Source: an uncultured virus (IMG/VR IMGVR_UViG_3300035698_005365)
Taxonomy: Duplodnaviria > Heunggongvirae > Uroviricota > Caudoviricetes
DNA: 64,000 nucleotides
Reading direction: 5' to 3' (one strand)
Virus record (IMG/VR): IMGVR_UViG_3300035698_005365
Shown here: in pieces, positions 1 through 63,989 of the stretch
Position numbering within the stretch: the first letter of the stretch is position 1
How the letters are laid out: each line of letters begins with the position of its first letter
The notes under the pieces: generated by a model
Databases searched by the model: none
The model's input: the letters and a program-made list of their open reading frames with translations, nothing else
What the model was told of the DNA's origin: nothing
Made by a program: the position numbers and the translations under genes

Positions 1-1648
1 CCTGTCCTCCATTTAAAGATATACTTCCACCAGATGCACCCATTTGAGTTCCGCCACCTGCTGTTTGAGTTATACTTCCACCTGCTGTTGCACCTGCACC
101 TGCTACATGGTTTATGTTTCCACCAATACCAGTGACTATCCCCGAAACACCAGCAGTAACGGAATATCCTGCTCCTGCTGCATTATTATTTGATTGTGCA
201 GTTCCAGTAAATGTAGCCAATGTTGAATCTGTAGCAGATGAAACTACATTTAATTTTGCGGTTGGAGAAGTTGTTCCTATTCCAACATTTCCATCGACAT
301 CAACACTTAAGGCAGGGTTGGGACTTCCATCACTTGCACTTAGTTCTGAATGTCTATGCAATGTGTCTGCCATTGAATCGTCTGTTAATACAAGATAATC
401 AGCATCTAATCTTAATAAATATTGAGTATGGTCATCATCGGACAAGCCCGTTAGGTTTCCGTGGTCTATGCTGCTCTCAAATGTGCTAAAGTCTATATCT
501 TCCCATTTTGAGGATGTTGTATTATAACTTAATAAAGCACTATTAGTTGGCGATGTTATTGTTGTATTACTAAGATTGTCTATTGTTGTAATATGCGGGT
601 TTGTTGTTAATCCACGGTGTGTTGTATTTAGCCCGAAGTCTACATATTCGGCAGCCGTTAGGTGCTTAAAATCTGCATTGTTTAATCCTGCTAAGTTATT
701 GTGAGTTACTGTGGAACCGAATGTTACCCATGCAGTTCCATTGTAAGTATAAACCTTATCTTCATCTTCTATCCATAAAGCAAATCCCTCTTCTGGTAAC
801 TGAAAATCCCATGAACTTCCATTCCATTGAGCTATGTCATCTTCATGTGTTGCCCAGTCTCCTGTAGCTGTAGCCGTAATAAGATATCTATCACTTGTAC
901 TTGGACTTCCAGGTGGTGTTGTTGTCATATCTATGACTGGTTCTTGCCATTTAATTCCCTGTACTAATGAATCAACATAATCTTTGGTTGTTAAGTGAGA
1001 ACCCATTATTGGTGTTACACCAGTTGTTACGCTATCGAATGTATAAGCTCCTGTGCCAAACGTACCTGCCGTTATATCACTCGCTGGTATATTAGATAAA
1101 CTTGAACCAGTATGCGTATGTCCTGGATTAGCACCACTTGTCACATTAGCTCCAACGATAGATGCTCCTGTAATTGTGTTCTGAACTGTAAGATTAGCAG
1201 ATGTCGCCCCTATAAAATTACTATTAGTAATATTTACATTACTTGTTTTAATATCTACATCAGCTGCAGCTGACACACCATCTGTATTATTAATCCTAAA
1301 TACACCACTCGCCGTATCAGATATTAAGTTTAATGTTGCCCCAGTTGGCGAAAATGTCCACGCGGGCACTCCAGAATTAGTTAATTGAATCTCTTCTGCT
1401 TGTAATGATATAATAAATCCATCTAGATCTATACTAGCTCCAGATAAAGTAAGCGACCCACTAGTACTTTTTATCCATGGCGTCCCTACATAACTTCCAA
1501 CAATTGCACTCCCTGCTACTGCCAGGTTAGTCATATCTCGAGATCCATCAATTAATAGATATTGAGTATGGTCATCCACTAAGAGATTTTGTAATAAGCC
1601 ATGGTCAGACACTCTGCCGTTATTTTGTAGAAGGATATTAGCTGTCAT
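1..1648 (-). CDS. Tail-fiber/virion structural protein with DUF2793-like segment and Gly-rich repeats (3'-partial, runs off the window edge)
   Basis: Not in the ORF track. ATG at 1648-1646 gives MTANILLQNNGRVSDHGLLQNLLVDDHTQYLL. The same frame gives sensible protein at the points checked down to position 2. Contains PSTSDRYLITATATGDWATHEDDIAQWNGSSWDF (DUF2793-like) and GGSIxxxxG repeats. BRE/TATA upstream. Confidence 0.75.
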   Translation of the reverse strand, partial: MTANILLQNNGRVSDHGLLQNLLVDDHTQYLLIDGSRDMTNLAVAGSAIVGSYVGTPWIKSTSGSLTLSGASIDLDGFIISLQAEEIQLTNSGVPAWTFSPTGATLNLISDTASGVFRINNTDGVSAAADVDIKTSNVNITNSNFIGATSANLTVQNTITGASIVGANVTSGANPGHTHTGSSLSNIPASDITAGTFGTGAYTFDSVTTGVTPIMGSHLTTKDYVDSLVQGIKWQEPVIDMTTTPPGSPSTSDRYLITATATGDWATHEDDIAQWNGSSWDFQLPEEGFALWIEDEDKVYTYNGTAWVTFGSTVTHNNLAGLNNADFKHLTAAEYVDFGLNTTHRGLTTNPHITTIDNLSNTTITSPTNSALLSYNTTSSKWEDIDFSTFESSIDHGNLTGLSDDDHTQYLLRLDADYLVLTDDSMADTLHRHSELSASDGSPNPALSVDVDGNVGIGTTSPTAKLNVVSSATDSTLATFTGTAQSNNNAAGAGYSVTAGVSGIVTGIGGNINHVAGAGATAGGSITQTAGGGTQMGASGGSISLNGGQ

Positions 1649-20943: not shown

Positions 20944-20951
20944 TATTTAAA

Positions 20952-29190: not shown

Positions 29191-29243
29191 GTGCCGTATA
29201 CGTATGTATTGTCTTTTATACTTTAAATAACTACCGATATAAA

Positions 29244-30773: not shown

Positions 30774-30870
30774 AGATAAATAAAGAATGGAAGAATAAAT
30801 TCAGAAAATATTTTGACGAATGTCTAGCGGATTCAAAAATAAAAATAGAGAATGGAGAGGAGATAGATTA

Positions 30871-47177: not shown

Positions 47178-47178
47178 G

Positions 47179-47484
47179 ATGCCACGTCCAACTAAAATAA
47201 AACTACCAATATCCGTTATAGATGTAGAATATGTAGATGACCTAACCAGTGCCGATGATGATAAATTAAATGGCGCATGTTCATTAAGTAGAGAACATAT
47301 CTTAATGGAAAAATCTATTGGAAAGAATTTTATGAAACATGTATTACTACATGAATTATTTCATATGATGACTAGTAATTGTCAAATAGAACTAAATGAA
47401 ACTGAAGTAGATGTTATTTCATTACAATTACAATATCTTATAGAAAACAATCATGGGCTAATCAAATGGATACAGGAAAAATAA
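47179..47484 (+). CDS. Small HExxH zinc metallopeptidase-like protein
   Basis: VLLHELFH...ETEVD. Confidence 0.65.
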   Translation: MPRPTKIKLPISVIDVEYVDDLTSADDDKLNGACSLSREHILMEKSIGKNFMKHVLLHELFHMMTSNCQIELNETEVDVISLQLQYLIENNHGLIKWIQEK

Positions 47485-48494: not shown

Positions 48495-48964
48495 AAGAAC
48501 CAAAGAGCATAGTAGTTGTATCTGGATACTTTGATCCAATACATGTAGGACATTTAGAATACTTTAATCAAGCACAAGATTATAAATTCGATAGTGAAGA
48601 TTCAGAAGTTGATAAATTTATTATCATCGTCAATAATGATAAACAACTTAAGTTAAAAAAGGGAACACCCTTCATGCCAGAGTTTGAGAGGCTTACTATA
48701 TTAGCTAATATAAAAACAGAAGCATATGATAGTGAAGTAGTTTTAGCACTAGACGATGATTCATCTGTATGTAGAACATTAGAATATATTCGAGCAACCA
48801 ATCCATATGATAATATTGTATTTGGAAATGGTGGCGACCGCAAGATTCAAGAAGTGCCAGAGAAAGCAACATGTGATAGACTTAATATTAATATGGTAGA
48901 TGGTCTTGGTAAAAAGATTCAGTCTAGTTCAGCTTTAATTGCGGGGTCTAAAGATGGGGCTTAA
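48491..48964 (+). CDS. Cytidylyltransferase-like nucleotidyltransferase (TagD/RfaE family)
   Basis: SGYFDPIHVGH, VNND, NGGDR, QSSS. Confidence 0.88.
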   Translation: MKEPKSIVVVSGYFDPIHVGHLEYFNQAQDYKFDSEDSEVDKFIIIVNNDKQLKLKKGTPFMPEFERLTILANIKTEAYDSEVVLALDDDSSVCRTLEYIRATNPYDNIVFGNGGDRKIQEVPEKATCDRLNINMVDGLGKKIQSSSALIAGSKDGA

Positions 48965-49223
48965 GATAATTAAATTTTATGCCGAGTGGTGTGGCCCTTG
49001 TAAACAACTTAAACCAGTCTTTGATGATGTATGTCCATTATATACAGATGTTGAATTTATGGATATTGATGTTGACGATACTGAATATGAATATTTAAAA
49101 AAAGAATATAACGTACGCTCAGTACCTAGAATTTTCTTTATAAAAAATAATGAACCAGTATTTGAACATACGGGATTTATATCTCGTGATCAACTTGTAG
49201 AAAAGATAGAGGAATTAAAATGA
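48954..49223 (+). CDS. trxA: Thioredoxin
   Basis: FYAEWCGPCK, VRSVP. Confidence 0.92.
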   Translation: MGLKIIKFYAEWCGPCKQLKPVFDDVCPLYTDVEFMDIDVDDTEYEYLKKEYNVRSVPRIFFIKNNEPVFEHTGFISRDQLVEKIEELK

Positions 49224-50152
49224 ATTTAGATAATAAAAAAATATTAATCGTTGGAGGAACTGGGTCATGGGGGCAGGCATTGACTAGACAAATTTTAGAT
49301 CAATATAATCCTAAGAGTATTAATATTTTATCTAGATGTGAACAGAAACAAGTTGATATGGAGAGACAGTTTAATAATAAACTTCTTAAGTTTCATATCG
49401 GTGACATTAGAGATAAGGACCGCCTCTTAGAAGTTATGGGCGATATAGATATTGTATTCCATTTGGCTGCACTTAAACATGTTCCAATTTGTGAAACACA
49501 TATAAATGAGACGGTTAAAACTAATATCCTTGGAACTCAAAATCTTATTGATGTGGCAAAGTACTATAATATTAAAAAGTTTATACTAATTTCAACCGAC
49601 AAGGCTGTCGATCCAATCAATACTTATGGACTATCTAAAGCATTAGCAGAGCGAATAGTTATTAATGCTGGATATATATGTATTAGGGCTGGTAATGTTC
49701 TTGGAACTAGCGGCTCAGTAGTACCATTATTTTATAAACTAGCCAAGGGCGGCCACCCAATAACTGTTACAGATCCATACATGACAAGATTTTCAATGTA
49801 TCTTAACGACGCCATTAATCTTATATTTAAAGCCCTCCAGTCGGCACAGTCTGGAGAAGTATATGTTATGAAAATGGATAGTTATTTATTAAAAGATTTA
49901 GCAGAATTATATTCGGAAAAATATAAAGTTCCAATTAATATAATTGGGACCCGTGCTGGTGAAAAGAAGCATGAGATTTTAGTTTCTAAATATGAGTTTG
50001 GTCGAGCAGAGGATGATGAAACATTCTTTAAAATTAAATCAATGACTTCAAAAAACCAATCAACATCTACACAATCGTTTCAATCCAACACTACAAATAT
50101 TATTCCAAAGAATGAATTGAAACAATTATTAGAAGAAGGTGGTTGGTTATGA
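49220..50152 (+). CDS. UDP-GlcNAc 4,6-dehydratase (PseB/FlaA1/CapD-like SDR)
   Basis: GGTGSWG, GDIRD, HLAALKHVP, STDKAVDP, YGLSK, GEKKHE. Confidence 0.9.
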   Translation: MNLDNKKILIVGGTGSWGQALTRQILDQYNPKSINILSRCEQKQVDMERQFNNKLLKFHIGDIRDKDRLLEVMGDIDIVFHLAALKHVPICETHINETVKTNILGTQNLIDVAKYYNIKKFILISTDKAVDPINTYGLSKALAERIVINAGYICIRAGNVLGTSGSVVPLFYKLAKGGHPITVTDPYMTRFSMYLNDAINLIFKALQSAQSGEVYVMKMDSYLLKDLAELYSEKYKVPINIIGTRAGEKKHEILVSKYEFGRAEDDETFFKIKSMTSKNQSTSTQSFQSNTTNIIPKNELKQLLEEGGWL

Positions 50153-50907
50153 ATACATTAGTTACTGGTGGGAGTGGGCGCCTCGGCTCTATGTTTAAAA
50201 AGAAACACCCAAAGTTTTTATATCCAACCGTGAAAGAACTTGATATAATCGATCCATCTTCAATCCACAAATATTTAAATACACACAAAATATCAAACAT
50301 TATTCATTTGGCGGCCATGACAGCTGTCGATAAATGTGAGACTAATCGTGAGCTGGCCTATGAAATAAATGTGGTCGGCACTCAAAACCTATACAGAGAA
50401 AGTATATATGGTGGCATACCATCATTTATATATGTAAATTCTGCATGCATCTTTGGCGGGAATCGAGAAGAGGTTGCGTACGAAGATACTATTCCAGTCC
50501 CAGATAATTATTATGGAGTAACTAAACTCCTAGCAGAGCACTCGCTATTATCAATGTATGATATGGCGCCCATTGGTGATGTTTTTTATAAGTTAAATAT
50601 TGTAAGAACAAACTTCACTTCGATGCCGTGGGAATATCCTGCAGCATTCACTGATAGATATGGTACTTATTTATTCACTGAAAATGTTGTTGATGGAATA
50701 ATGGATGTATTTAACACGGTATGCACCCCAACAATTATTCATTTATGTGGAGATAAAAAAATGAGCATGTATGAATATGCAACACTTGGTAAATCAAATG
50801 TTAAAAAAATTACAATGGCTGACTATAATGGTCCAGCTAAATTAACTAAGAACATGAGTCTTGGTACAAAGCACTGGACTCCCTATGAGGCAAAATTAGC
50901 AAAATGA
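50143..50907 (+). CDS. NDP-4-keto-6-deoxysugar reductase (RmlD-like)
   Basis: TGGSGRLG, AAMTAVDKCE, INVVGT, YGVTKL. Confidence 0.82.
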   Translation: MVMNTLVTGGSGRLGSMFKKKHPKFLYPTVKELDIIDPSSIHKYLNTHKISNIIHLAAMTAVDKCETNRELAYEINVVGTQNLYRESIYGGIPSFIYVNSACIFGGNREEVAYEDTIPVPDNYYGVTKLLAEHSLLSMYDMAPIGDVFYKLNIVRTNFTSMPWEYPAAFTDRYGTYLFTENVVDGIMDVFNTVCTPTIIHLCGDKKMSMYEYATLGKSNVKKITMADYNGPAKLTKNMSLGTKHWTPYEAKLAK

Positions 50908-51686
50908 AAATCGATGTATTTATACCAACGATACCTGAGACGCAAGAATATTTAAAACTTTGTTTACTCGGATTAGAAAAAAACAAAGAGTATATAAATA
51001 AAATTCATATTTATGGAAACAAATATTCACAAGAGAACTTAGAAGATCTACAAGTCTTAGAGGGTAAGTGTACTATTCCAACGAATGTTTATATTAACCC
51101 CCGCAATATGGGGCAAGCAATTGTTATGAATGAGTTTGTTATTAATAATTGCGAAACAGAATACTTTATGATTATAAATGATGATATGGTTTGTGATAAA
51201 AATATGTTAAAGAATATGCAATTTCATTTAACTAACGATAACCTCCCATACGAATTACTATGTCCTAAAATAGTAGAGCCAGGTACTAAGGTACCAGTGG
51301 CGCCCCAGTTTGTTACCTTAGATTGCGGGGATGATTCTACAAACTTTGATGTAAAAAAGTTTGAAGATTATTGTGATAATGCTCCACGATCATATGAAAA
51401 AATTAGAGAACACTCACTACCATTTATTATGAGACGACAATTATATATAGCGTTAGGTGGCTGGGATGAAAACTTAACATCTGGCCCATGTTCGGATACT
51501 GATTTCTATATGAAAATGGATATATTAAACTTAAACTATTATCAAGATCAATCATCTTTTTGTTACCACTTCAGTGGGAAGGCCAGTCGTCTTAATCCTA
51601 AATGTGATTTTGCAAATAGCTTTCAAGCACTAGAAACTAAGAACCTTAAATATTTAAATAGTAAATGGAGACAAAATGGGAATTGA
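50904..51686 (+). CDS. Glycosyltransferase family 2 (GT-A)
   Basis: VFIPT, INDDM, GGWDE, SDTDF. Confidence 0.82.
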   Translation: MKIDVFIPTIPETQEYLKLCLLGLEKNKEYINKIHIYGNKYSQENLEDLQVLEGKCTIPTNVYINPRNMGQAIVMNEFVINNCETEYFMIINDDMVCDKNMLKNMQFHLTNDNLPYELLCPKIVEPGTKVPVAPQFVTLDCGDDSTNFDVKKFEDYCDNAPRSYEKIREHSLPFIMRRQLYIALGGWDENLTSGPCSDTDFYMKMDILNLNYYQDQSSFCYHFSGKASRLNPKCDFANSFQALETKNLKYLNSKWRQNGN

Positions 51687-53316
51687 GAATATAGGAAAGA
51701 TTGGTGTGGACTTTACAGAACACTCGGATATATTATATTATTTATGTAATGCATTCAAAGTAAAATCAATTTTAGAATTAGGAGTAGCGAACGGTTGTTC
51801 AACCCTAGCGTTTGCTGAATATGCTAAAGAGGCCAAGGTTCCATTTACTTCTGTAGATATGACACCAATGGCCCCCCATACCAAAGAGTATATGGATTTA
51901 AACTATGCAGGCCTTTGGAAATTTATTTTATCTGATGATATTAAACTTGAATGGATAGAAGATGTTGATTTAGTATTTATAGATACTAGTCATGAATATG
52001 AACACACTCTTAAGGAATTAAATAAGTATGGGAAACATGCCAACAAACTTATTGTGCTACATGACACAGAACAGGTTGGAGAATTAGATGGCCAGGTGCA
52101 ACGTGCAATAACTGAATATTGTGACCAAGAGAATTTACCATGGTCTAAATTTACAAATCAGTATGGGCTTGCATTTATATATAAACACTTTGAGGAACCG
52201 AATATGGAAGTAAGTATTATTATAAAAACAAAAAACAACTTTGATTATTTATTAACATGTTGCCAAGCTATACGTAATCATATGAAATACAATCATGAGA
52301 TCGTAATTGTGTTTAATGGATGTAATAAGGAAGATGAAGAGAAGTTTGTTAAAGACTTCGATGATAACAATACTAAGATTATATCTCTAAAGGAGCCTGG
52401 TTTATGTACAGCCACCAATGCGGGTATCAGGGAAGCATCTAATGAATGGGTCTGGTTGTTTGATGATGATTATATTCCAGGATTATTATCCGATGAATTT
52501 ATAGCAAAGGGCCTAAAGATCAATACTGTATATTCAAACATATTAGTTGAGCCAGGTAACCAACCAGTGTCTCCATTTTTAATTGAAAAGAACTTTGGTC
52601 GTGAACTAAATGAATTTAAGGCAGACGCCTTTGATGACTTTGTTCTTAAGACTATAAGTGAAACCACTCGACCGAATGAAGTATCTTATCCTGTCCTAGT
52701 GCATAGAGATGTAATAAATAAAGCGGGCAACCTAGATCCTAGATTTGATCGGGCATACGCTAATGATCCCGACCTATGGTATCGCCTTAAATTAAGTGGT
52801 GCCTCCTTTGAAAGAAATTGCTCATCAATCTTTTATCATTTTAGTGGGAAGGCTAATGCAGCCGAACATGCAGGGCAGGCCAGCGCAAAACGTAAAGAGA
52901 TTGAGTTAGCATGCAATAAAGATTTTATTCGAAAGTGGGGTGAGATGTTTAATTATTCATTTGGTAGCGATGTTAAACCACAAGTACCATGCCATCGCAA
53001 ACAGAGTCAATACAAGCCACTATCATTAGGAATAATTTCAGACTCTATGGATTATATAAAGGCTATTATTAAATTCGAACCTTTCTTTGATAAAATTGAA
53101 ATTAAAACAAACCTATCAGGTTTCGATGTGAATCAAGTTTTATATAATTATATTATAAATGAAAAAAGTGTTGATTATTTATTTTCTAAGTTTAAAATTG
53201 TAAAGGAAATAAATACAGATATAACCTTACAAGATGGCGCGGTATTGTTTATTGATACAGTTGTGCAGGCCCGACGTAATTTATATATCAAAAAGGATGT
53301 GACTAATAATGAATGA
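51676..53316 (+). CDS. Class I SAM methyltransferase (Methyltransf_24-like) fused to a GT2 glycosyltransferase
   Basis: N-terminal LELGVANGCST, FIDTSHEYE, LHDT; then VSIII, LFDDD, DPDLWYR. Confidence 0.82.
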   Translation: MGIENIGKIGVDFTEHSDILYYLCNAFKVKSILELGVANGCSTLAFAEYAKEAKVPFTSVDMTPMAPHTKEYMDLNYAGLWKFILSDDIKLEWIEDVDLVFIDTSHEYEHTLKELNKYGKHANKLIVLHDTEQVGELDGQVQRAITEYCDQENLPWSKFTNQYGLAFIYKHFEEPNMEVSIIIKTKNNFDYLLTCCQAIRNHMKYNHEIVIVFNGCNKEDEEKFVKDFDDNNTKIISLKEPGLCTATNAGIREASNEWVWLFDDDYIPGLLSDEFIAKGLKINTVYSNILVEPGNQPVSPFLIEKNFGRELNEFKADAFDDFVLKTISETTRPNEVSYPVLVHRDVINKAGNLDPRFDRAYANDPDLWYRLKLSGASFERNCSSIFYHFSGKANAAEHAGQASAKRKEIELACNKDFIRKWGEMFNYSFGSDVKPQVPCHRKQSQYKPLSLGIISDSMDYIKAIIKFEPFFDKIEIKTNLSGFDVNQVLYNYIINEKSVDYLFSKFKIVKEINTDITLQDGAVLFIDTVVQARRNLYIKKDVTNNE

Positions 53317-54010
53317 TACCGATAGGCTTACATTACAAAACTTAAATATTAACAAGGAGCCTTCAATAGCAATTGGCGTCCTTGTTGGCGAAAAGGATGC
53401 AAACAAAATATATAACTTTCTTCGAAAGAATGAGCCATACTTTAATAAGGTATATATTATTGCAGACTGTGGGCCAGACGATATCCCTATTATAAAAGAA
53501 GTTGGTCGCTATGTATCAGATGAAACTGAAAAATCTAAACTCTTTTCATCAAACAAGATTACAATATTACCACACTTATTAAATGATGATTTCGCAGCTA
53601 TGCGGAATGCCGCCGTTGCTATTAATGAATGTGAGTGGCTATTCATGTTGGATGCTGATGAGACATTAGAAGCGAAGGGCCTCGTTCATTTTAGAACTAT
53701 TATCCAAAAGATGGAAGAGGATGAGGCCGTAGATGTGGTTGGATTTCCAAGGGCAAACTTCATCGACGGCAAACAGACTCCAGTATATCCCGACTACCAA
53801 TTTAGATTAGTACGTAAGGGGATCAAGTGGACCAATACCAGTCCAAGTGTGGGCGCAGTCCCTGGGTGCCACGAGTATCCTGAGCCAGCAATTAGGCGCG
53901 AGCGCGTTGGCGTCTTAAGAGAGCCACAAATTCTACACCCAAAAACAACAATAGAACAAGAAGCACAAAATAAATATTATAAAGAAATAGAAGGTAAGCA
54001 AGATGAATAA
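53309..54010 (+). CDS. Glycosyltransferase family 2
   Basis: DFAAMRN, WLFMLDADE, PDYQFRL, CHE. Confidence 0.85.
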   Translation: MNDTDRLTLQNLNINKEPSIAIGVLVGEKDANKIYNFLRKNEPYFNKVYIIADCGPDDIPIIKEVGRYVSDETEKSKLFSSNKITILPHLLNDDFAAMRNAAVAINECEWLFMLDADETLEAKGLVHFRTIIQKMEEDEAVDVVGFPRANFIDGKQTPVYPDYQFRLVRKGIKWTNTSPSVGAVPGCHEYPEPAIRRERVGVLREPQILHPKTTIEQEAQNKYYKEIEGKQDE

Positions 54011-54467
54011 GGATATAAAGACACAAGAAGTGCCACCAGATATGGCAATTGATGAGAAAGAAGTTATTAAGATTAATGAAGATGTTGCAATCTTAGAGAG
54101 GCCCGAGCTTGATGAAATTATAGCTAAGTTCCAGAAGTCTCTTGGTAATACTGAGACATGGCAAAAGTTAACTGTATTTTATTTTCAATGTTTAGATAAA
54201 TACAGCGACCTAACCAGTGAAGAGATAGTTGAAAAAGATTATCTATATTTAATGATTGGACTACGAAACCCAAGTAACCCAGCAGCAATTATTGGAGTTA
54301 TGCCCATTGCCTTTAAGAATGAAATACTTTCATTTAGACAGGAAGATTATAATCAGATATGTAATATGCTTGAGATGGAATTTCCTGTACGACTATCAGT
54401 ATATAATGATAAGATGACCGTTGGTGTCAAGGAGGTTAAAGATGAGAGTTCTAATAAAGAAGAATGA
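54003..54467 (+). CDS. Hypothetical protein
   Basis: 154-aa ORF. Confidence 0.6.
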   Translation: MNKDIKTQEVPPDMAIDEKEVIKINEDVAILERPELDEIIAKFQKSLGNTETWQKLTVFYFQCLDKYSDLTSEEIVEKDYLYLMIGLRNPSNPAAIIGVMPIAFKNEILSFRQEDYNQICNMLEMEFPVRLSVYNDKMTVGVKEVKDESSNKEE

Positions 54468-54684
54468 AGATGGTAAGTATACCACCCTTATTGGCGACCT
54501 TGATGTGAGCCAATATGTTTCTGGATTCTCAGTAGATGCGAGGGTTGATAAGAGTCCCCAAGTCTATTTAATCTTGACGCCAGATTGTGTCGATATAGAT
54601 CTAGAGGATATCGAGTTACGCTCGATATCTTATACTAAGTTAAAGAAAATCGAGGGGCATGGGGACCCCGACATCGTTCTTTAA
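54442..54684 (+). CDS. Hypothetical protein
   Basis: GGAGG RBS before MRVLIKK. Confidence 0.55.
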   Translation: MRVLIKKNEDGKYTTLIGDLDVSQYVSGFSVDARVDKSPQVYLILTPDCVDIDLEDIELRSISYTKLKKIEGHGDPDIVL

Positions 54685-54685
54685 A

Positions 54686-55765
54686 ATGGCTAAGATATTA
54701 TTCAACTCGGTCTTATATACTCCCGAGGGTATCACCAAGCATGCCCGTGAGGAAGCGAAGGAATTGCTGGCTAGAGGCCATCAATTATTTGTTACTGATA
54801 TTAACTACAAGAAAGAGTATGGTGAGGAGTATACAAAAATGTATACCCCTTTTGATAGGACTAAAGATGACTATATTCATTATATGATTCAGCCACCAAT
54901 ACGACCTAATAATATACCAGCATGTCTAGCAGGCTATACTAATGAGAAGAGATTGTTTTATTTTCTAGCATTTGAGGCATCATTGCCGAAGCAGTGGGTT
55001 GAAGTAATCAACTATGCGCAGATGAAATGTATCATTGTGCCTAGCATGTATAATAAAAAGGTATTCGAGCGGTCCGGCATTCGGCATCCTATTGAAATAC
55101 TGCCACATGGCATAGATCCTAGCTTCGCATACAAGGCTAAGCAGAGCCCATCTGAGGCACTTAAATTATTGTGGGCTGGTACCCTTCACAACTCAAGAAA
55201 GGGCCTCAGAGAGGCTTATATGGCCTTTAAGACCCTATCTGAGAGATACCCACACCTTACCCTAACAATAAAGGCCAGTGGAGTCTATGGATGCAGTGAA
55301 AAGTATAAAGAAATCTTAGATGAAGCAAGCAAGAATCCTCGCATTAATATTATAACAGATATCCTTTCAGATGCTGAAATGGTAACCTTATTTCAAGACC
55401 ATCATATATATTTAAGCCCCCATACTAGTGAAGGTTTCGGTATGCATATACTTGAGGCCCTCGGAACAGGGACACCTGTCGTTTGCAGTGGCTGGAGTGG
55501 CAATGTAGACTTCACAAAGAACGTCGCCCTCCATATAGACTTCGATGAAGAGTATAAAGTAGAAGAGGCCCCATATACAGGGCAGATATGGAAGCGTCCA
55601 TCTGTATCTAGTATCATTGATGTAACCAGTAAATTAATAGAGAACTATGATGATTATGCTAAGCTATTTAAAAAGCATAGTGTTGATATCCATAAAAAGT
55701 ACTCATGGATCAATATAGTAGACCAATTAGAGGATCTGTTTATAAAGTATGGTGCAATAAACTAA
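54686..55765 (+). CDS. Glycosyltransferase family 4
   Basis: PHGID, RKG, EGFGMHILEALGTGTPVV. Confidence 0.88.
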   Translation: MAKILFNSVLYTPEGITKHAREEAKELLARGHQLFVTDINYKKEYGEEYTKMYTPFDRTKDDYIHYMIQPPIRPNNIPACLAGYTNEKRLFYFLAFEASLPKQWVEVINYAQMKCIIVPSMYNKKVFERSGIRHPIEILPHGIDPSFAYKAKQSPSEALKLLWAGTLHNSRKGLREAYMAFKTLSERYPHLTLTIKASGVYGCSEKYKEILDEASKNPRINIITDILSDAEMVTLFQDHHIYLSPHTSEGFGMHILEALGTGTPVVCSGWSGNVDFTKNVALHIDFDEEYKVEEAPYTGQIWKRPSVSSIIDVTSKLIENYDDYAKLFKKHSVDIHKKYSWINIVDQLEDLFIKYGAIN

Positions 55766-55809: not shown

Positions 55810-55986
55810 ATGATGCCATACTGGATACTATTGTTAGTATCGTCTGATCGAGCACTATACCGCCATCTAGGCCAACGTTGTTTTAATTGGTATAGACGGT
55901 ATCTTTTAAAAATGCCATATATCACAATGAAGTTAGATAAGAAAGATAAATATATCTTTCTATATTCTAGCGACTTTGATATTTAA
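55810..55986 (+). CDS. Small hypothetical protein (58 aa) with own promoter
   Basis: TATA AAAGCTTTATAAAG at 55764-55777, GGGGAG RBS, MMPYWILLL... Confidence 0.4.
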   Translation: MMPYWILLLVSSDRALYRHLGQRCFNWYRRYLLKMPYITMKLDKKDKYIFLYSSDFDI

Positions 55987-57335
55987 TCTAATCTATATTT
56001 ACCATCAATAATATTAATAAGTTGTGGCCTACCATGGGGATATAATGCACAATGTGTATTTAACCAACTGCTGGCCCCCCTATTATATTCTAATTGTAGA
56101 TTCGTACTAGTTCCAACTACCCATGTATTCCGCTGAATCTGTGGACTGTGGGCGTGTCCTGAGATCGACTTCCCAGTACTATTCTCCATACTTCTTATAG
56201 ATCCCCTGGCACCATTGGCACCCAAGTCTCCATGATTAGCAAGCTGGTATCCCCGCACCTTGAAGTCATCATCTCGTCCTAAGAATGTAACAGCTGGCAC
56301 CTTGCCATGTGTATATTCAATGCCACGCTCTAATGGATCAGCCCCCTGAAGATAATCCTGTGCCAACTTACATGATAGATCTAAATTTTTAGGGTCATCT
56401 GTAAACCTTCCCTCCTGTAGATATCTTTCAATGAATTCATCATGATTAGATTTAACAACAATAACTGCCCCATCTTCTGGAAGAAGTGCCTGCAGTGTAT
56501 CTAGTGTTTCACCACACATATTAAGTTCGCTTTCTAAATCGTCTCCACCGGCCTTAGCCTTAGCGGCCCTAATCATTAATTGTTTCTGGTGATGATGAGA
56601 AATACTATATGCATCAAATAGATCATGTATGATAAGATATTTTGGGCGTAGTTCTGCAATCAATTCTTTAGTTGCCTTAAGCACTTCGTCATTAATGGCC
56701 CCCGTGTGCAAGTCCCCTAATACAAGTGCCTCTGCACGATCATACATTGGCGTCGCCGCTCCTGCAAATTCTATTCCAAGATCATACATTCGTCCAGTGG
56801 TATTAGCCTGTAGTTGCCTATAATGGAATGAGTCTTTATTTGCTTCTACTAAGATGCCCCCAAAGACATGATCTAGGCGGGCCTTCGTATCCCAGTTACC
56901 ATCTCGATAGTGTGGCATAGTACAAGCGCCCGTAGTCATTAGGACCTTCGGCTTATGCGTATTAGAATTAGGTATTACTTGCATCCGTTGCTTTGGACTT
57001 GCAAAGATTGCAGACTTATCATATTGAACGAAGCGCCCCCATCCAGTGAGTGGATCTATCTGCTGTGCCTTTACTGGGAAGCGTCTAATATCTAGATCCC
57101 TATGAATAGGCATATCGCCATCTACTATAGAATGTTTTTGTAGACTTGGATGTAGGAGTTCATCTTCAGATGAACTCTTCGATGTTGGTGCCTGACCATT
57201 GGTCGGCAAGATTAAGATTTCAGCGTCATGATATGATGCTGCTGATTCAAGAGATTCAATAAATTTTTTGTGGGGTGGTGCTCCACGTTGCGCTGTAGTT
57301 ATTATATACTTACTTACTTTATCATCTAATGTCAT
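55983..57335 (-). CDS. Large metallophosphoesterase-fold protein, possibly T5 A1-like nuclease
   Basis: C-terminal half LGDLH, HDLFD, SNHDE, NHGD, GHAH; N-terminal YIITTAQ. The A1 resemblance is from recall and is unverified. Confidence 0.65.
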   Translation of the reverse strand: MTLDDKVSKYIITTAQRGAPPHKKFIESLESAASYHDAEILILPTNGQAPTSKSSSEDELLHPSLQKHSIVDGDMPIHRDLDIRRFPVKAQQIDPLTGWGRFVQYDKSAIFASPKQRMQVIPNSNTHKPKVLMTTGACTMPHYRDGNWDTKARLDHVFGGILVEANKDSFHYRQLQANTTGRMYDLGIEFAGAATPMYDRAEALVLGDLHTGAINDEVLKATKELIAELRPKYLIIHDLFDAYSISHHHQKQLMIRAAKAKAGGDDLESELNMCGETLDTLQALLPEDGAVIVVKSNHDEFIERYLQEGRFTDDPKNLDLSCKLAQDYLQGADPLERGIEYTHGKVPAVTFLGRDDDFKVRGYQLANHGDLGANGARGSIRSMENSTGKSISGHAHSPQIQRNTWVVGTSTNLQLEYNRGASSWLNTHCALYPHGRPQLINIIDGKYRLD

Positions 57336-57665: not shown

Positions 57666-58643
57666 CTATTTCGATAATAGTGAAAACCCTTTAATTGTTG
57701 GGACACCTGCCGCTGGACTACCAGTAGCTGCAGTTATCTTTACTAATACTCGAGTGGGCTCACTTGTAAATGCTGTGAAATCACTAATCTCTGGAGCTGT
57801 TCGCATACAGTTTAACCATCCACTATCCTCACTAACATTTTGTAATTTATATTCTATATTTGCACCATCTTCCCATGTTTCAAGTAATGGTACTCCAATT
57901 GCTGAAGATACTGTAGATCCAAGGGTTCCTGTTGGAATATCATGCCAGACTGTTCCATCCGATCCAGCAGTAGTTGTTGTATATTCTAAACTCCAATATA
58001 AATGATTTACGGAAGTGCCCGGGGCAATAGTATTTAATGCTAATCTAACTCCGGAACATGATGTTCCAATAGCAGTTGTCCCAGTAGCATTCCATAATTG
58101 AGTTGTACCATGACTACCAACAAATCCATATGCATCCCAAGAAGATCCATTATATGTATCTATTGCAAGCGATCCACTAGTCATATTGACTGCAGATACA
58201 CTATCTGTTCTAACACGCCATCTAACATCTAATACACTTTTAGTTGATCCAAAAAAATAACCTATTGATGTTGATTTTGTTCCGGCAGTAACTACTTCTA
58301 CGGCAGCGGTCGAATCATTAAAATCTGCAATCCATGTTGGATTTTGCATAACATTAGGATCATATAAAGAATTATAATCAGTTGACAACGCACTAACACC
58401 TATACCATAATGGTCTGTTGAAAATAACGCTGTTGTTGATCCAGCATTTACAGTATTTTTTCTACCAGAGGCATCTATATATGCTTCTGCCCACATATCA
58501 ATAAACCCAGTGGAAATATCTACATCACGGTCTTGTAATTCTCGAATTAAATTTAATCCATTTACAGTATAACATACACTAAAGTTATCATTCAACTGTG
58601 TTGATAATAAAGTCGCACGTCTTTTAAAGTCTTCTAATCCCAT
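57666..58643 (-). CDS. Virion structural protein (beta-rich, S/T/G-rich)
   Basis: Tail-region location; 8 Gly-Ser motifs. Confidence 0.6.
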   Translation of the reverse strand: MGLEDFKRRATLLSTQLNDNFSVCYTVNGLNLIRELQDRDVDISTGFIDMWAEAYIDASGRKNTVNAGSTTALFSTDHYGIGVSALSTDYNSLYDPNVMQNPTWIADFNDSTAAVEVVTAGTKSTSIGYFFGSTKSVLDVRWRVRTDSVSAVNMTSGSLAIDTYNGSSWDAYGFVGSHGTTQLWNATGTTAIGTSCSGVRLALNTIAPGTSVNHLYWSLEYTTTTAGSDGTVWHDIPTGTLGSTVSSAIGVPLLETWEDGANIEYKLQNVSEDSGWLNCMRTAPEISDFTAFTSEPTRVLVKITAATGSPAAGVPTIKGFSLLSK

Positions 58644-58687
58644 TTTTATCTCTTATTATTATAATTATATTTTATCCTTTATAAATA

Positions 58688-60103
58688 TTATTGTTTTAAA
58701 CTATATGCTATTTCCAATGAAAAGATTTTTGCACCATTCATCCCATCTACAAATAGGTATCCCTCATTGCTATCATTAGATATAGTCAATAAAGATCCAA
58801 TTTGATTACTGGATGTTTGCTGAAAATTAATAACTGACCCAGCCCCCGACCCAAAATAATAACCAATAGATCCAGTCTGTGTTATATTTTCAGTTGAAAT
58901 GATTTTAGATCCACTTATTAATGATGTATCATATATGTTAAATGAATCAATATCTCTTTCAATCCAGATTGGATTTGAGGAGCCAATAGCTATCCCAGAT
59001 CCAATAATACTTGTTGATCCAGTGGCTAAAGTATGTTTTATTATATAGGATGATCCGTTATAATTTGGATTAATATTATATGCTGTGGTTTCATTACTTT
59101 CAAAAATAGGTCCAAACACATTTGCTGTCACATCATTTTCAGCATCTATATAATATGTATAAGAATCCTTTTTGGGTTTATCATAATATGTATAACTTCC
59201 AAGATTGATATATGGAGTTGAACCAACGGTATCTAATGATGATGAATAATAGACACTTTGACCATTAGTATTTAAATTTAAATAATCATTAATTCCTAGG
59301 TATGAATCTGCTCCAGCTTTAAAAATAATTTTACCACTCCCAAGTGGTGATGTAATATCTTGAAAATCTAGAAAGTATCCACTGCCTAAATCCGTGGCAT
59401 CTTGTATATAAATCTTTTTATAATCTAACCTTGTATCAACTAAGATATTAAGATAGCTACCAGTATAAAACGATCCAGTTGTATTTAATTCTGTATGAAC
59501 TCCACTACTAACCTTATTAAATGATATACTACTTCCTAAGTTTAAATAGTAATGATTATTACTATCTTCATAATTAAAATATAAACTTCCAGCGGTCTTT
59601 AAATGATCATATCTAAATGTTGTTTTAAATAAATAATTATTTGCAACATTAAGTTCACTAGATCCACCAGTTAGAATATAATTACTAAAGTCTTTATTAT
59701 TTGGGGCACTGATATCTCTAGCTAGATATGTATCATTCGATACACTAAGCCCTGTCTCTTGTCCAAAAAACATAGTATCTAGGTATACGCTACCAGTGGA
59801 TAATCCACCAACGCTTAAATCAAATGATATAATTGAACCTATATCTGGGGCACCCGTCAAGGTACTACCTATTGATGATAGATTAAATCCAAACGATATT
59901 GGAATTGTATAATCAATAGAGCTCCCAATGTCTGTATTTAGATTAACTACAATGCTGCCAGAATCACCATTAGATGTATATACTATATGTAAAAGCGATG
60001 TATCAATAGATCCTATATTTTGAAACTGTGCCTGAGAGACTGACTCACCATTTCCTAATTTCAACATTTCTGTTCCTTGCACTATTGGGGTTATTTTAAT
60101 CAT
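58688..60103 (-). CDS. Virion structural protein with xGS repeats
   Basis: 471 aa, 24 Gly-Ser dipeptides by hand count; beta-rich composition. Confidence 0.6.
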   Translation of the reverse strand: MIKITPIVQGTEMLKLGNGESVSQAQFQNIGSIDTSLLHIVYTSNGDSGSIVVNLNTDIGSSIDYTIPISFGFNLSSIGSTLTGAPDIGSIISFDLSVGGLSTGSVYLDTMFFGQETGLSVSNDTYLARDISAPNNKDFSNYILTGGSSELNVANNYLFKTTFRYDHLKTAGSLYFNYEDSNNHYYLNLGSSISFNKVSSGVHTELNTTGSFYTGSYLNILVDTRLDYKKIYIQDATDLGSGYFLDFQDITSPLGSGKIIFKAGADSYLGINDYLNLNTNGQSVYYSSSLDTVGSTPYINLGSYTYYDKPKKDSYTYYIDAENDVTANVFGPIFESNETTAYNINPNYNGSSYIIKHTLATGSTSIIGSGIAIGSSNPIWIERDIDSFNIYDTSLISGSKIISTENITQTGSIGYYFGSGAGSVINFQQTSSNQIGSLLTISNDSNEGYLFVDGMNGAKIFSLEIAYSLKQ

Positions 60104-60187
60104 TATTATTCACGTATACTTAAAATGTTATATTCTTTTAATACCGATGATGAACACGGCTTTTGTATTTATTGTCATAATTATTTA

Positions 60188-60445
60188 CTACTCCTTTTTT
60201 ATAACAGATATCACTTCAATTTTACCATCAGTTTTTATTTTTCTTACTTCACATGGTTTCCCAGTATCGTCTTTTACATGGTCGCCATCAACTATGATAC
60301 CTTTAGGAGAAGTAAATTTTTCTTTATATTCTCCATATAGCGTTTCAGCTTCAGCATCTGTAGTAACATTTAGTCTGACCAAATTAGCTATTTCTGTTTG
60401 TAAATCTGTGTTTTCTTCTTTGATTTCTAAGTATTTGTGTACCAT
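60188..60445 (-). CDS. Hypothetical protein
   Basis: 85-aa ORF in the minus-strand tail operon. Confidence 0.55.
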   Translation of the reverse strand: MVHKYLEIKEENTDLQTEIANLVRLNVTTDAEAETLYGEYKEKFTSPKGIIVDGDHVKDDTGKPCEVRKIKTDGKIEVISVIKKE

Positions 60446-60457
60446 TTTTGTTTTTCC

Positions 60458-61162
60458 TTAATCATACTTTAATGCTGCTCCTGAGTCATATAAATCTGTG
60501 ATTTCTCCTGGTGTAAGTGTTTTGTTGGAAAGATAAATTTCATCCATCATCCCATCATAATAATCACCGAATCCTTTAGAACCCATATATGATGTTGTCT
60601 TCTGTGCTGCAAAGTTTGTTACTGTTGAATCTGTGTCAATTGATGTTCCGTCCTTATATAAAATCCACCCATTAACCGTATTATAGGTTATACTATACAT
60701 TCTCTTTGTCGTTGATAAAGATGAATCGCTAACCTTTACAGTCCATGCCCCCTGATTGCTTCTTACTTCTAGTGTTCCCGACAAGATTCTTAATTGTATT
60801 GACCCATAATCGTCTCCGAATGGTGCCCAAATATATGCTTCCGTTGATGTATCATCCGTTTGCATCCAGAGATTGATTGAAAAATTATTATTAACTGTTG
60901 TAACTATTAAATCGCCAGGGAGTGTTGTTGTGTCATTCGTTCCATCGAATCCCCTTCCGAAATTTAATTGCCCAGTCACCTGTGTCGTGCCTATATTAGT
61001 CCCGTTGTTGGCAGAAACCTCATCGACTATACTTGATGTTTCCATCTTAGAATACCAGACTAAGCCAGTTGATAGTGTCGGATGTGTTACTATTGAGTCC
61101 CAACTACCAGAAGATATTTTCTGACCTGATGCGACAATTCCAACTGAAAATGGTGATATCAT
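60458..61162 (-). CDS. LamG/concanavalin A-like lectin-domain virion protein
   Basis: GLVWYSKME, GFDGTND, FSINLW, LYKDG, YDGMMDEI, LTPGEITDLY. Confidence 0.8.
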   Translation of the reverse strand: MISPFSVGIVASGQKISSGSWDSIVTHPTLSTGLVWYSKMETSSIVDEVSANNGTNIGTTQVTGQLNFGRGFDGTNDTTTLPGDLIVTTVNNNFSINLWMQTDDTSTEAYIWAPFGDDYGSIQLRILSGTLEVRSNQGAWTVKVSDSSLSTTKRMYSITYNTVNGWILYKDGTSIDTDSTVTNFAAQKTTSYMGSKGFGDYYDGMMDEIYLSNKTLTPGEITDLYDSGAALKYD

Positions 61163-61825
61163 TTATGCAGCCTCTAAATCTCCTGAGAGAATCCACTCGT
61201 CTGTCCCTAATTTCAATAGCGAACATGATGTATATTGTGCTCTCATTAGCAATGTTTGTGGTGTCCTGATTGTTACCCCAGCTCCTGCCGTTATTGTAAC
61301 TTGTCCAGCTCCAAGCTGACTAATTAAAATTGACGTTCCTGTTACAAACGCTACCGAACTATTAGGTGGGACTGTTAATGTTGAAGCTCCCGCATTGTTC
61401 ATTGTAACTGGTTCTGATTTGTCTCCGGCTACCAATGTATATGATGTCCCTGTTTGCGTATTTATTGTGAATGTGTCTGCTGCCTTAGCATTAAGCTGTG
61501 TTTGAATTGCACTTGTTACGCCATTAACATATTCTATTTCTGCTGCCGTTGTAGTTGCTACTGCTACAAAACCACTGCCATCTGAAACTAATGCACGAGA
61601 TACTGTGGTGGCTGCCAATTTATTTAAAGCTATAGCTGCAGCAGCTTTAATGCTTGCATTAGCTAAATTTGTAATAGCGTTGCCAGTTCCATCCTCATTT
61701 ATTGTCTTGTTTGTTAATGTTGCCGTACCAGCTGCAGTAATCCGCGTCTTCTGGTCAGCAACGTGAGTATTCCATTCTGATGAACTTAACTCACTTCCTA
61801 TTCCTTTATTATCGTCCCAGGCCAT
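61163..61825 (-). CDS. Tail-fiber-like protein
   Basis: TLTNKTI, EIEYVNGVTSAIQTQLN, NTQTGTSYTLVAGD, LTVPPNSSVAF, GAGQVTI, WILSGDL. Confidence 0.75.
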   Translation of the reverse strand: MAWDDNKGIGSELSSSEWNTHVADQKTRITAAGTATLTNKTINEDGTGNAITNLANASIKAAAAIALNKLAATTVSRALVSDGSGFVAVATTTAAEIEYVNGVTSAIQTQLNAKAADTFTINTQTGTSYTLVAGDKSEPVTMNNAGASTLTVPPNSSVAFVTGTSILISQLGAGQVTITAGAGVTIRTPQTLLMRAQYTSCSLLKLGTDEWILSGDLEAA

Positions 61826-61869
61826 ATTATCACCATATTATTTATTTTTTATTCTTGTTTGTTTTATTA

Positions 61870-62211
61870 TTAAAATGTTGTTGGGAATGTCCATGGGAAT
61901 ATTGCAGAGCCTGTTATAGGTTCGGTATTTGATCCACTTGTTACAAAACTTCCGCTTCTAATTAAAGCATCATCCCATGTTTCTATATTTGATGTAAATT
62001 CTGATAAAACATATGTATTATTATTATCAGTATATGATTGATATTCCGCACTATGAGGGCTTCCGGAAAAGTAATCAATAACTATATTTGAAGCGCTACC
62101 AATATTAATATCAGCTATTAACTGTATTTCACTTACAGATAATAGAGATCCTGCGGGAGACATATTGTTTTTAACAATAGGGCCAACTAAATTTGGTATT
62201 CGGTTTGTCAT
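61870..62211 (-). CDS. Virion protein with xGS motifs
   Basis: 113 aa, 6 Gly-Ser motifs, C-terminal FPWTFPTTF. Confidence 0.55.
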   Translation of the reverse strand: MTNRIPNLVGPIVKNNMSPAGSLLSVSEIQLIADINIGSASNIVIDYFSGSPHSAEYQSYTDNNNTYVLSEFTSNIETWDDALIRSGSFVTSGSNTEPITGSAIFPWTFPTTF

Positions 62212-62214
62212 TAT

Positions 62215-62562
62215 TTATGGAAATAAAATGCTTCCGTCCGCAGCATTCTGACTCATTATGGTAAATCTATCATTTGTAAAATTTGTAAAAAATTTATTTA
62301 ATGAATTATATACAATGAATAAATTTTCAGTTTGTTCGTAGTCGGACCCAATCTTAACAACATCTAATTGTCCATTTACTGGATCATCTAATATGAAGGC
62401 GTTATTCTTAAGATTTTTAAAAATTTTAAACCGCGTATCAATAATCTTTAATGATTCTCTAGTAAATGTAATTCTTGGAACACTTGACGTTCCTCCCTGA
62501 AACTGTAATCTAGTATTATAATTTTGCTGACTTTGCTTTCCTAATGAAACTCCTAATGGCAT
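62215..62562 (-). CDS. Hypothetical tail protein
   Basis: AFILDDPVNGQLD; translationally coupled to the upstream gene. Confidence 0.55.
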   Translation of the reverse strand: MPLGVSLGKQSQQNYNTRLQFQGGTSSVPRITFTRESLKIIDTRFKIFKNLKNNAFILDDPVNGQLDVVKIGSDYEQTENLFIVYNSLNKFFTNFTNDRFTIMSQNAADGSILFP

Positions 62563-63989
62563 TATAATCTCACCGCCTTCTCTTCTGTCAATTCAACCTT
62601 ATCATCTTGTTCGTATTGAAGAAGAGTTGTCCACCCTCCAGTAATTGTAAACCGGTGCCGAACATTTACTAGTCGTTGATTCACAGATAAGTTTGATAAT
62701 GGATAAAAAATATTAGTAACATTCCCAGGAATATATGTATTTGCTCCAGGAAATACACTCTTATCAAATTTTCTTCTATTTTCTGATTCCATTTTTAATT
62801 GATCATTACCTATTTCTTGTGCACGAGCAACTGCCTGATCCTTGATTTTTTCTGAATATTCTCTATCATTACTAACGGCGGCAGTTACCCCATTGAATAT
62901 ATACAATGCCCCATTAACAGTAACGTCCTCGCCTATCATTGTCCATGGATACGCACTAGGAAAACCATCTACTTGAATACTTTCTCCAGAATTTCTATCG
63001 GCTCCATGATTAATCTCTTTATCTATGATTTCTTTTGCAATATCCATCATTGGTATAAACTTCCATTTTGGACCATTCTTAATAAATGATTCTGCATTAA
63101 TGACAAATGTTGGAGCATCTGAACCATCTGGAACAATGCCCGCATTTATAATATATGCATTTATTACATTATTATCTTGTCGCAATGAATCATCGTTATA
63201 ATCATCTTCAACAATAGCATCTAATGCAACATATGTTTTAAATTTCCAAGCTAACTCATTATTATTATTTATACTAGTAATATATGTTCCAGCATCGCTA
63301 TCACCAGTAAAAGATACTAATGATAATTCTTCTATATGCTGGTGAAGTGGCCTATATCCTTTGTTAAAAGAAACTGTTGGAAACTCAGTTCCATCTGATC
63401 GCGTATCTACTATAAATCCACCATTACTTTCAAGAGCAGCAGATAATTGTAGCGCCGAGTTGGCTCCTATAAATTGGTTTGCAGTTTGAACTAATTCTAT
63501 TATAAAATCATTAACTTGTTGTCTAATTTCTGAACCAGATACAACCCCCATAAGGGCTGGAGTAAGTGCTGATAATAATAACTCACTTCGATCTACGCCC
63601 TTAATTTTAAATTCTTTTTTTGAGTTAGAAACTTTTAGATCTACACTTTGAACAATTCCATCCATTAAAAGCGCATCGGTTTCAAAATCTAGTGGCTTAC
63701 TACCATACCATGCATATATTTTAATTCTATCTCCCGAACGAATAGGAGTTGTATCACCTGGCGAAAATAAAGTGTCGGTATCATATTTAATAGCTAATGC
63801 TCCAGTATTTGTTATTTGAGTTTCGTTAAGCTGTGTTGGAAATAAATTAAACTCAAAGGTATCACGTCTAGCTTCAATCCCTTTTTGAATATCAAGAGTA
63901 TTAAAATTAGATATAGGTCGAGGACTTGTCTCATACGTATTATCACTAATACGTTTGAATAGTTTTATTTCAACGCGTGGATTAAGCAT
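62562..63989 (-). CDS. Tail/baseplate hub-like protein
   Basis: DTFEF...GDRIKIY...MDGIV...IKGVD...LL and VRHRFT..GWTT resemble hub proteins. Confidence 0.6.
   Translation of the reverse strand: MLNPRVEIKLFKRISDNTYETSPRPISNFNTLDIQKGIEARRDTFEFNLFPTQLNETQITNTGALAIKYDTDTLFSPGDTTPIRSGDRIKIYAWYGSKPLDFETDALLMDGIVQSVDLKVSNSKKEFKIKGVDRSELLLSALTPALMGVVSGSEIRQQVNDFIIELVQTANQFIGANSALQLSAALESNGGFIVDTRSDGTEFPTVSFNKGYRPLHQHIEELSLVSFTGDSDAGTYITSINNNNELAWKFKTYVALDAIVEDDYNDDSLRQDNNVINAYIINAGIVPDGSDAPTFVINAESFIKNGPKWKFIPMMDIAKEIIDKEINHGADRNSGESIQVDGFPSAYPWTMIGEDVTVNGALYIFNGVTAAVSNDREYSEKIKDQAVARAQEIGNDQLKMESENRRKFDKSVFPGANTYIPGNVTNIFYPLSNLSVNQRLVNVRHRFTITGGWTTLLQYEQDDKVELTEEKAVRL

Follow-up and report, generated by a model that had tools for sequence, protein, structure and literature searches.

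The 64,000-base window analysed here (bases 1-64000 of the 74,075-base IMG/VR record IMGVR_UViG_3300035698_005365, from an uncultured tailed virus) encodes predicted virion proteins unusually rich in the dipeptide Gly-Ser (GS), together with an island of sugar genes that includes predicted glycosyltransferases. The ends of the record overlap by 81 bases, so the virus genome is taken to be complete and circular. The minus strand, from 57666 via the origin to 8596, encodes terminase, portal, an HK97-fold capsid protein and tail proteins, and the plus strand carries replication and metabolic genes followed by a terminal sugar island (45046-55765). With an HK97-fold capsid, portal, terminase and tape measure, the genome has the siphovirus layout of Caudoviricetes; the tape measure and tail tube are named from position and composition alone.

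The highest GS count belongs to a 471-residue orphan encoded at 58688-60103 (minus strand, like all genes given with coordinates in this paragraph), a predicted tail-tip or decoration protein with 24 GS versus 6.8 expected from its composition, the expectation used throughout for each protein. Half of its 48 glycines are followed by serine, the reverse Ser-Gly (SG) occurs seven times, and 100,000 shuffles gave a maximum of 19 GS. Its neighbours include a 325-residue predicted virion protein (57666-58643; 8 versus 3.2), assigned from its place in the morphogenesis operon, a 113-residue predicted virion protein, likewise assigned by position (61870-62211; 6 versus 1.0), and a 115-residue predicted tail-tip protein (62215-62562; 2 versus 0.5). 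[quoted passage not shown] A preliminary description, made from the letters of the window, had counted GS by hand in four of these (24, with about 7 SG, in the orphan; 6 at 61870; 8 at 57666; 8 in the capsid), and those counts are exact. The excess reaches beyond the window, to the tail tube (7 versus 2.3) and to neck and tail-tip genes. There is none in the Laminin_G_3 (ConA-like) domain protein (60458-61162; 3 versus 2.7), in the virion structural protein with a widespread tail domain (61163-61825; 2 versus 1.6), in the 475-residue baseplate hub predicted by position (62562-63989; 3 versus 2.2) or in the tape measure (4 versus 3.5). Internal head proteins and enzymes, previously described as poor in GS, are so: portal 0 versus 1.0, scaffold 0 versus 0.6, protease 1 versus 1.5. 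The 1339-residue tail fibre, which spans the genome origin and has its 5' part at 1..1648, had been called rich in GS; this holds for its N-terminal 549 residues (12 versus 6.6, p 0.02) but not for the whole protein (22 versus 20.0).

Pooled over 18 predicted virion proteins (5536 residues), GS occurs 118 times versus 56.1 expected (z 8.3), a count reached in none of 3000 shuffles, and it ranks first among all dipeptides (runner-up z 3.4). Removal of the two richest proteins and the fibre still leaves 66 versus 28.5. The 15 other minus-strand proteins hold 7 versus 10.9, which brings all 33 minus-strand proteins to 125 versus 67, and the 54 plus-strand proteins hold 42 versus 39.4. Because the 18 were assigned after the per-protein counts had been seen, a label-free rule was also applied, taking every open reading frame (ORF) with at least 23% Gly+Ser+Thr; it gives 107 versus 55.2.

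The sites are dispersed, as first described: they lie 4-48 residues apart with varied flanks, and a tandem-repeat origin was rejected on these grounds. The proposed (I/T/L/A/V/S)-G-S preference is also borne out (81 of 118 sites versus ~58 expected), and Ile or Leu tends to stand at +2. AGY codons encode 50 of the 118 GS serines and 212 of all 571 serines, and GATC is under-represented; with both serine codon families at background use and GATC rare, the signal lies at the protein level, and a DNA-level motif (Dam/GATC) or codon bias was rejected. An N-glycosylation sequon was likewise rejected, as N-x-S/T occurs 7 times versus 8.9 in 58688-60103 and 5 versus 3.0 in the capsid, and N-G-S makes up 6 of 118 GS sites versus 7.6 expected. 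The proteoglycan-type order, Ser-Gly, was rejected because its enrichment in the 18 proteins (73 versus 56.1, or 1.30) is no higher than in the control tail proteins described below (also 1.30 pooled). The orphan itself yielded no homolog among 7989 scored candidates; its single-sequence AlphaFold model was unusable (predicted local distance difference test, pLDDT, 32), the Atlas gave weak beta-sandwich leads below the bar, and reads from two runs held no variant letters and gave no informative variation.

The capsid provides the finest view of individual sites. Its GS serines lie at residues 38, 95, 99, 174, 187, 192, 210 and 272 of 341, all eight in coil in an AlphaFold model whose pLDDT averages 76.5 and drops under 50 over the N-terminal 39 residues. 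Ser 95 and 99 sit at the tip of a long hairpin that we take to be the outer E-loop. Capsid homologs (n=29) hold 202 GS versus 60.4, 26 homologs at 35-66% identity have 4-8 apiece, and 29 remote HK97 capsids hold 53 versus 45.7 (1.16). Serines 38, 99, 187 and 192 are present in 30/30 clade members and never replaced by Thr, Ser95 is found in 25/30 and Ser210 in 27/30, and the six majority-Ser columns without a preceding Gly show a mean Ser retention of 63%. At several sites Gly was in place before Ser.

One homolog, P0030, has lost the serine at all six conserved sites, where it reads Ala, Lys, Val, Thr, Asp and Ala, and it retains 5/6 of the glycines, the family fold sequence and two GS elsewhere. 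With the trait columns removed, P0030 nests among GS-rich capsids (Shimodaira-Hasegawa-like approximate likelihood ratio test, SH-aLRT, 98), and an approximately unbiased (AU) test speaks against monophyly of the GS-rich capsids (p 0.035); the tree is a quick LG tree of 33 of the available sequences, and the AU group was named after a first tree had been seen. Since six serines were lost at once and five of the glycines kept, the fold does not need these serines, and P0030 reads as a concerted release of constraint. Four divergent capsids that adjoin the GS-rich ones in the tree (P0034, P0035, P0037 and P0039) hold only 2-4 GS, which may reflect another loss or mark the actual root. Related contigs have GS-rich capsid, tube and adaptor proteins, and scaffolds and chaperones with none or almost none; for own-clade metagenome contigs the analysis covered 10 kb flanks. 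Within these relatives GS clusters in an inserted tail-tube domain and in the adaptor middle domain, at positions that shift from one relative to another. As single queries, the capsid, P0030 and the 45046 product found nothing in viral contigs, and alignment A2 found nothing in genome contigs.

The sugar island lies on the plus strand and opens with a soluble family 4 glycosyltransferase (GT4) at 45046-46254, here called GT-A, which matches PF00534 at 71.9 bits (cut-off 26.4) and is the best candidate for an initiating transferase. A second soluble GT4 closes the island at 54659-55765 (PF00534, 42.5 bits, same cut-off). Both read EGFGM...E, in agreement with E-x7-E, which we take to be the GT4 donor-binding motif. 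Between them lie a possible divergent glycosyltransferase (47466-48494; weak WsaF_C match below cut-off, E 0.0016), a cytidylyltransferase-like nucleotidyltransferase (48491-48964), a PseB/FnlA-like UDP-GlcNAc 4,6-dehydratase (49220-50152; below NCBIfam cut-offs), an RmlD-like NDP-4-keto-6-deoxy-sugar reductase (50143-50907), a methyltransferase fused to a family 2 glycosyltransferase (GT2; 51676-53316) and two GT2-like proteins with matches below cut-off (50904-51686 and 53309-54010). The island also has a very weak Stealth match, and none of its enzymes has a predicted membrane helix. Neither 46251-47177 nor 47466-48494 aligned significantly to GT-A by profile, and 46251 is therefore not counted as a transferase. 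The preliminary description had named the island as a whole as the writer, which is too broad. Ten of its genes were tested for recurrence in related GS-rich viruses: 45046 and, more distantly, 54659 recur, but the others do not, and some phages without an excess have distant 45046 homologs. Of the island genes, GT-A is the one present in every fully covered GS-rich record. Two observations concern its surroundings. A gene shortly before the island (43243-44028) encodes an acidic protein that begins with a membrane or signal segment and matches no family. In the clade relative G001, a sugar epimerase/dehydratase split by intein and LAGLIDADG domains (L032:5785-8838) faces the tail genes, as the window's island does.

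An alignment of the 45046 product and six homologs served as query, and the best 80 of 83 viral loci were kept, all 24-33% relatives. A tree of 90 such enzymes, from which 10 near-duplicates were omitted, places the window's GT-A group as sister to a clade from GS-rich viruses (FastTree 0.965). Motif scoring covered most of 27 records, with Gly/Ser/Thr-rich ORFs counted as virion-like. In these ORFs the 20 records of the sister clade hold 1215 GS versus 683 pooled, an observed-to-expected ratio (O/E) of 1.78; individual records range from 1.15 to 2.27, all 20 above 1.1 and 16 at 1.6 or more, and their other ORFs stay at ~1.0. G382, just outside the sister clade, reaches 1.69. Six more distant records have GS O/E of 0.90-1.46, and in five of them Gly-Thr stands at 1.48-2.51: one subclade of the distant GT4 clade sits in Gly-Thr-rich, not Gly-Ser-rich, viruses. 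In G400, for example, virion-like proteins hold 124 Gly-Thr versus 49 expected. Thr being the other O-acceptor after the same Gly, this subclade was counted in favour of O-glycosylation. The Gly-Thr viruses L074, L063, L081, L103, L104, L089 and L113 (including G400, G416 and G420) mostly read G-T-[I/A/V/L] and likely carry a Thr-acceptor version of the same system.

The sister viruses are distant from the window virus in their virion proteins. Twelve of 13 window virion proteins have no phmmer match in them at E 0.01 and one has a weak match (E 0.0012), so the motif was not inherited site by site. They share one capsid family, which in five records is remotely related to the window capsid (profile E 7e-7 to 5e-4), and they carry homologs of the window's portal, terminase, protease or polymerase. 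Relatives found through the sister capsid were close and mostly short contigs, with no complete genome free of glycosyltransferases among them; GS O/E exceeds 1.3 in 59 of 68 scorable loci, and four of five checked for GT4 had a match, the fifth being 34% complete. Sister records G376-G412 (L119-L163) also show a second motif, Ser-Gly-[Thr/Ala], at about four times expectation (SGT 291 versus 65), and a conserved second GT4, 'GT-B'. The window's 54659-55765 product is a distant relative of GT-B (95 bits to its profile versus 237-585 for full-length members), and the window has no Ser-Gly-[Thr/Ala] excess (15 versus 10.1). Because the sister viruses combine the second motif with GT-B and the window has only a distant GT-B without the motif, we hypothesize that GT-A serves Gly-[Ser/Thr] and GT-B serves Ser-Gly-[Thr/Ala]; two incomplete sister records have the motif, and no GT-B was found in them. 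The closest solved relative of GT-A, the best of 22 PDB sequences, is chlorovirus B736L (NY-2A; A546L of PBCV-1; PDB 3oy2), which aligns full-length to positions 6-397 of GT-A profile A4 at E 1.3e-19, a profile similarity only and not tree-based orthology.

Control loci were anchored on the tail domain shared with 61163-61825. In 76 scorable loci of 80, GS stands at 1416 versus 1256 (1.13; median 1.15), with four at 1.6 or more, and in 21 dereplicated controls of at least 1500 residues it stands at 663 versus 606, with one at that level. A rank test of the 20 sister records against the dereplicated controls gives p 3e-7, uncorrected for kinship and comparing whole records with 20-kb loci. SG is raised generically in the controls (pooled 1.30, median 1.48), GS much less. 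Among the 38 longest control records, of which only nine are at least 90% complete, one has a weak partial GT-A match and nine have a GT2 match. Observed and expected GS are 24/23 in lambda, 37/33 in HFTV1 and 50/51 in Che8. Two objections that had been anticipated, that composition or turn preference might explain GS and that relatives lacking glycosyltransferases might be equally rich, did not hold: neither composition nor codon bias nor a general preference for beta-turns accounts for the excess, which tracks one GT4 lineage and is missing in controls without that lineage. One control phage, L309 (G439), with one GT2 and no GT-A match, shows Gly-Thr at 138 versus 61 and Ser-Gly at 116 versus 53, possibly an unrelated tag system.

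The reading we favour, with moderate confidence, is that the GS serines are glycosylated by a viral enzyme, GT-A being the likeliest starter. It builds on five observations, namely the GS excess, its restriction to morphogenesis genes, its independence of codon use, the conservation and concerted loss in the capsid, and the association with one GT4 lineage; virion O-glycosylation as first proposed is in this sense partly supported. That GT-A specifically is the starter falls somewhat short of an even chance. Working in the cytoplasm, on subunits or on assembled particles, GT-A would recognise Ser by the Gly at -1 and transfer sugar to it; its sites would lie in flexible loops, mostly with a small or aliphatic residue ahead of the Gly and a strand following (Ile/Leu at +2). 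A 6-deoxy-N-acetylhexosamine (6-deoxy-HexNAc) donor would come from the dehydratase and reductase, and chain extension and capping would fall to the GT2, further GT4 and methyltransferase genes. If selection favoured more glycan, Gly-Ser would accumulate in any loop able to accept it, in keeping with the way positions shift in exposed inserted domains. Six to eight sites per capsid subunit would give a dense particle coat, possibly for shielding from proteases or host defences, for stability, or for adhesion to the host or the host's own host. More broadly, and as a tentative proposal on the doubtful side of even, a tailed-virus family with probably DPANN hosts would coat its whole particle with O-glycans at a minimal Gly-[Ser/Thr] sequon that a soluble viral GT4 recognises, the acceptor switching between Ser and Thr with the enzyme lineage, a second GT4 writing Ser-Gly-[Thr/Ala] in the sisters, and sites being gained and shed in concert with the enzymes. 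On that proposal, the specificity of uncharacterised glycosyltransferases could be predicted from dipeptide bias in virion proteins.

Several points weigh against glycosylation by GT-A. In the capsid, the serines are predicted to be surface-exposed from secondary structure and the anatomy of HK97, Ser38 lies just ahead of a helix and may be its N-cap, and the loss in P0030 is seen in the capsid alone, with no tie to a transferase loss. The fibre taken whole has no excess, and sister capsids hold only 1-4 GS. The GT-A tree and the virus lineage are largely co-inherited, so that the association represents about two or three independent origins, not twenty. G387 carries both GT4s at a GS O/E of 1.15, several GT-A subclades show neither GS nor Gly-Thr excess, and the own-clade relative G001 (36% complete) gave no PF00534 match. 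Three cultured phages (TJE1, phiPsal1 and Mae-JY09) have 45046 homologs at 24-28%, in two of them a GT4 at most two genes from the capsid gene, and show no clear GS or Gly-Thr excess (GS 20/20, 35/27 and 25/24 observed/expected, from the first 28-31 kb and with ORF calls unreliable at high GC). For B736L, the available part of PMC9614988 reports binding of GDP-mannose, with activity and acceptor uncharacterised. In phiPsal1 (L260:6979-9351) and Mae-JY09 (L261:9787-10971) the GT4 gene lies within the head-tail operon, shortly after the capsid gene, which makes these two phages culturable test cases for virion glycosylation, though without GS excess.

The alternative that survives best, which we nevertheless consider unlikely, keeps the modification and changes the writer: the serines would be modified by a GT2, by the 54659 product, by a transferase of phospho-sugar or glycerol phosphate that the cytidylyltransferase 48491 supplies, or by a cytoplasmic enzyme or kinase of the host. 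The GT2 genes retained by sister viruses (GT2 was found in 38 of 50 records searched) and their GT-B lend it weight and count against GT-A, as do the island cytidylyltransferase with the very weak Stealth match, the distant GT-A homologs without any motif, and a host group that the window and sister clades may share. It does not explain why GT-A occurs in every fully covered GS-rich record and why its tree splits Gly-Ser from Gly-Thr viruses, and viral non-structural proteins in the same cytoplasm show no GS excess. The archaeal oligosaccharyltransferase AglB is a membrane system that, in the available part of PMC10384203, acts outside the membrane and on Asn; head-tailed particles assemble in the cytoplasm, out of its reach, and N-x-S/T is not enriched.

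A structural preference is a shade less likely still. Here GS would be fixed as a beta-turn or helix N-cap, and the glycosyltransferases would act on DNA, the host surface or one fibre protein and be merely co-inherited. The eight capsid sites in coil, Ile/Leu at +2 (which suggests turns before strands), glycines that predate serines, the confounding of enzyme and virus lineage, and the generic SG excess of control tail proteins all agree with it. However, control tail proteins equally rich in Gly, Ser and Thr have a GS O/E of only 1.13 and remote HK97 capsids 1.16, P0030 retains its family fold sequence with six different replacements, and turn preference leaves the Ser-only conservation, the concerted loss and the Gly-Thr switch with another GT4 subclade unexplained. 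As for DNA, a hydroxylase or hydroxymethylase encoded nearby is presumably a feature of DNA-hypermodifying viral glycosyltransferase systems; no Pfam match to either was found in the 60 window proteins scanned, many of them without a family and small ORFs lying outside the scan, and window 34095-34421 resembles what we take to be the dATP/dGTP diphosphohydrolase domain of phages with modified bases. Improbable, finally, is a non-covalent role in which GS loops would dock a decoration protein, an ion, an ice or mineral surface, or a component of the host: the sites do occupy loops in proteins predicted to be outer ones, and their number varies, but a two-residue site across unrelated folds is too small for specific binding, and the GT4-lineage link and Ser/Thr switch are left unexplained.

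The nearest known likeness to glycosylation of GS serines is the virion glycosylation of Che8-type mycobacteriophages, reportedly described by Freeman et al. in 2023. Those are likewise siphoviruses with several virus-encoded soluble glycosyltransferases, which in the window are predicted from genes alone. In the available parts of the literature, capsid and tail tube are modified there, the same proteins that are GS-rich in the window virus, and the glycans are placed at the C-termini of both (PMC12619734; PMC11256854 and PMC10877033 also cite mycobacteriophage virion glycosylation). By contrast, the window's GS sites span residues 38-272 in the 341-residue capsid protein and are mostly internal in the other proteins too, implying many internal loop sites across most outer proteins, and Che8 itself lacks a GS excess. 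No Mycobacterium phage was among 11 records matching 45046 or 142 matching 54659, a search that did not extend to GT2 genes. The window system may work like mycobacteriophage virion glycosylation, differing in site position and GT4 homology, a parallel that is unproven.

Soluble cytoplasmic GT4s that add sugar to protein serines are known from Gram-positive adhesins (GtfA/Gtf1 and SdgA). They match 45046 and 54659 weakly, far below family cut-offs, and their substrates are serine-rich tandem repeats, in contrast to the dispersed Gly-Ser loops of the window. Proteoglycan xylosylation, a membrane/secretory system, and AglB also use short sequence-defined attachment sites, but the proteoglycan order is the reverse, Ser-Gly, and AglB uses N-x-S/T. 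Chloroviruses resemble the window virus in having soluble virus-encoded transferases and, in the available part of PMC9614988, a methyl-capped capsid glycan; they differ as giant algal viruses whose known capsid glycans are described there as N-linked.

Virus-encoded virion glycosylation is already established for a few mycobacteriophages and for giant viruses, and the open literature, with subscription papers mostly outside the search, held no description of a Gly-Ser or similar sequon for head-tailed viruses. The present case contributes serine invariance at the level of the capsid, concerted loss, and a Ser-versus-Thr switch that follows a single enzyme tree. Should glycosylation of GS serines be correct, it would offer a named enzyme, a two-residue site and natural variants with gain, loss and switch, and would therefore be testable without culturing the virus. 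It would also hint at the kind of acceptor used by the orphan B736L-like GT4 family, and glyco-engineering would gain a small soluble O-glycosyltransferase together with its minimal tag.

The host is probably archaeal and possibly a member of DPANN. An Aenigmatarchaeota bin contains an all-viral contig with a capsid homolog (one strong match in 371 genomes), and another such bin contains a sister-type capsid, binning error being possible in both cases, and a primase-like gene of the window resembles PriX/PriL clusters. Salt-lake metagenomes hold near-identical DNA: two of nine listed runs contain at least half of the words, and one of these two may be the source. Elsewhere in the window, 15179-25763 holds a phiEco32-like amide-ligase cassette with two COOH-NH2 ligases, amidotransferases, an ATP-grasp protein and a gamma-glutamyl cyclotransferase. 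A ribonucleotide reductase with a weak class II insertion-domain match and a cobalamin adenosyltransferase (37596-39485 and 42557-43102) suggest that the virus may supply its own B12 cofactor step. The 74-kb genome also encodes four metallophosphoesterase-family proteins, at 29187-30011, 30820-31356, 44272-45042 and 55983-57335.

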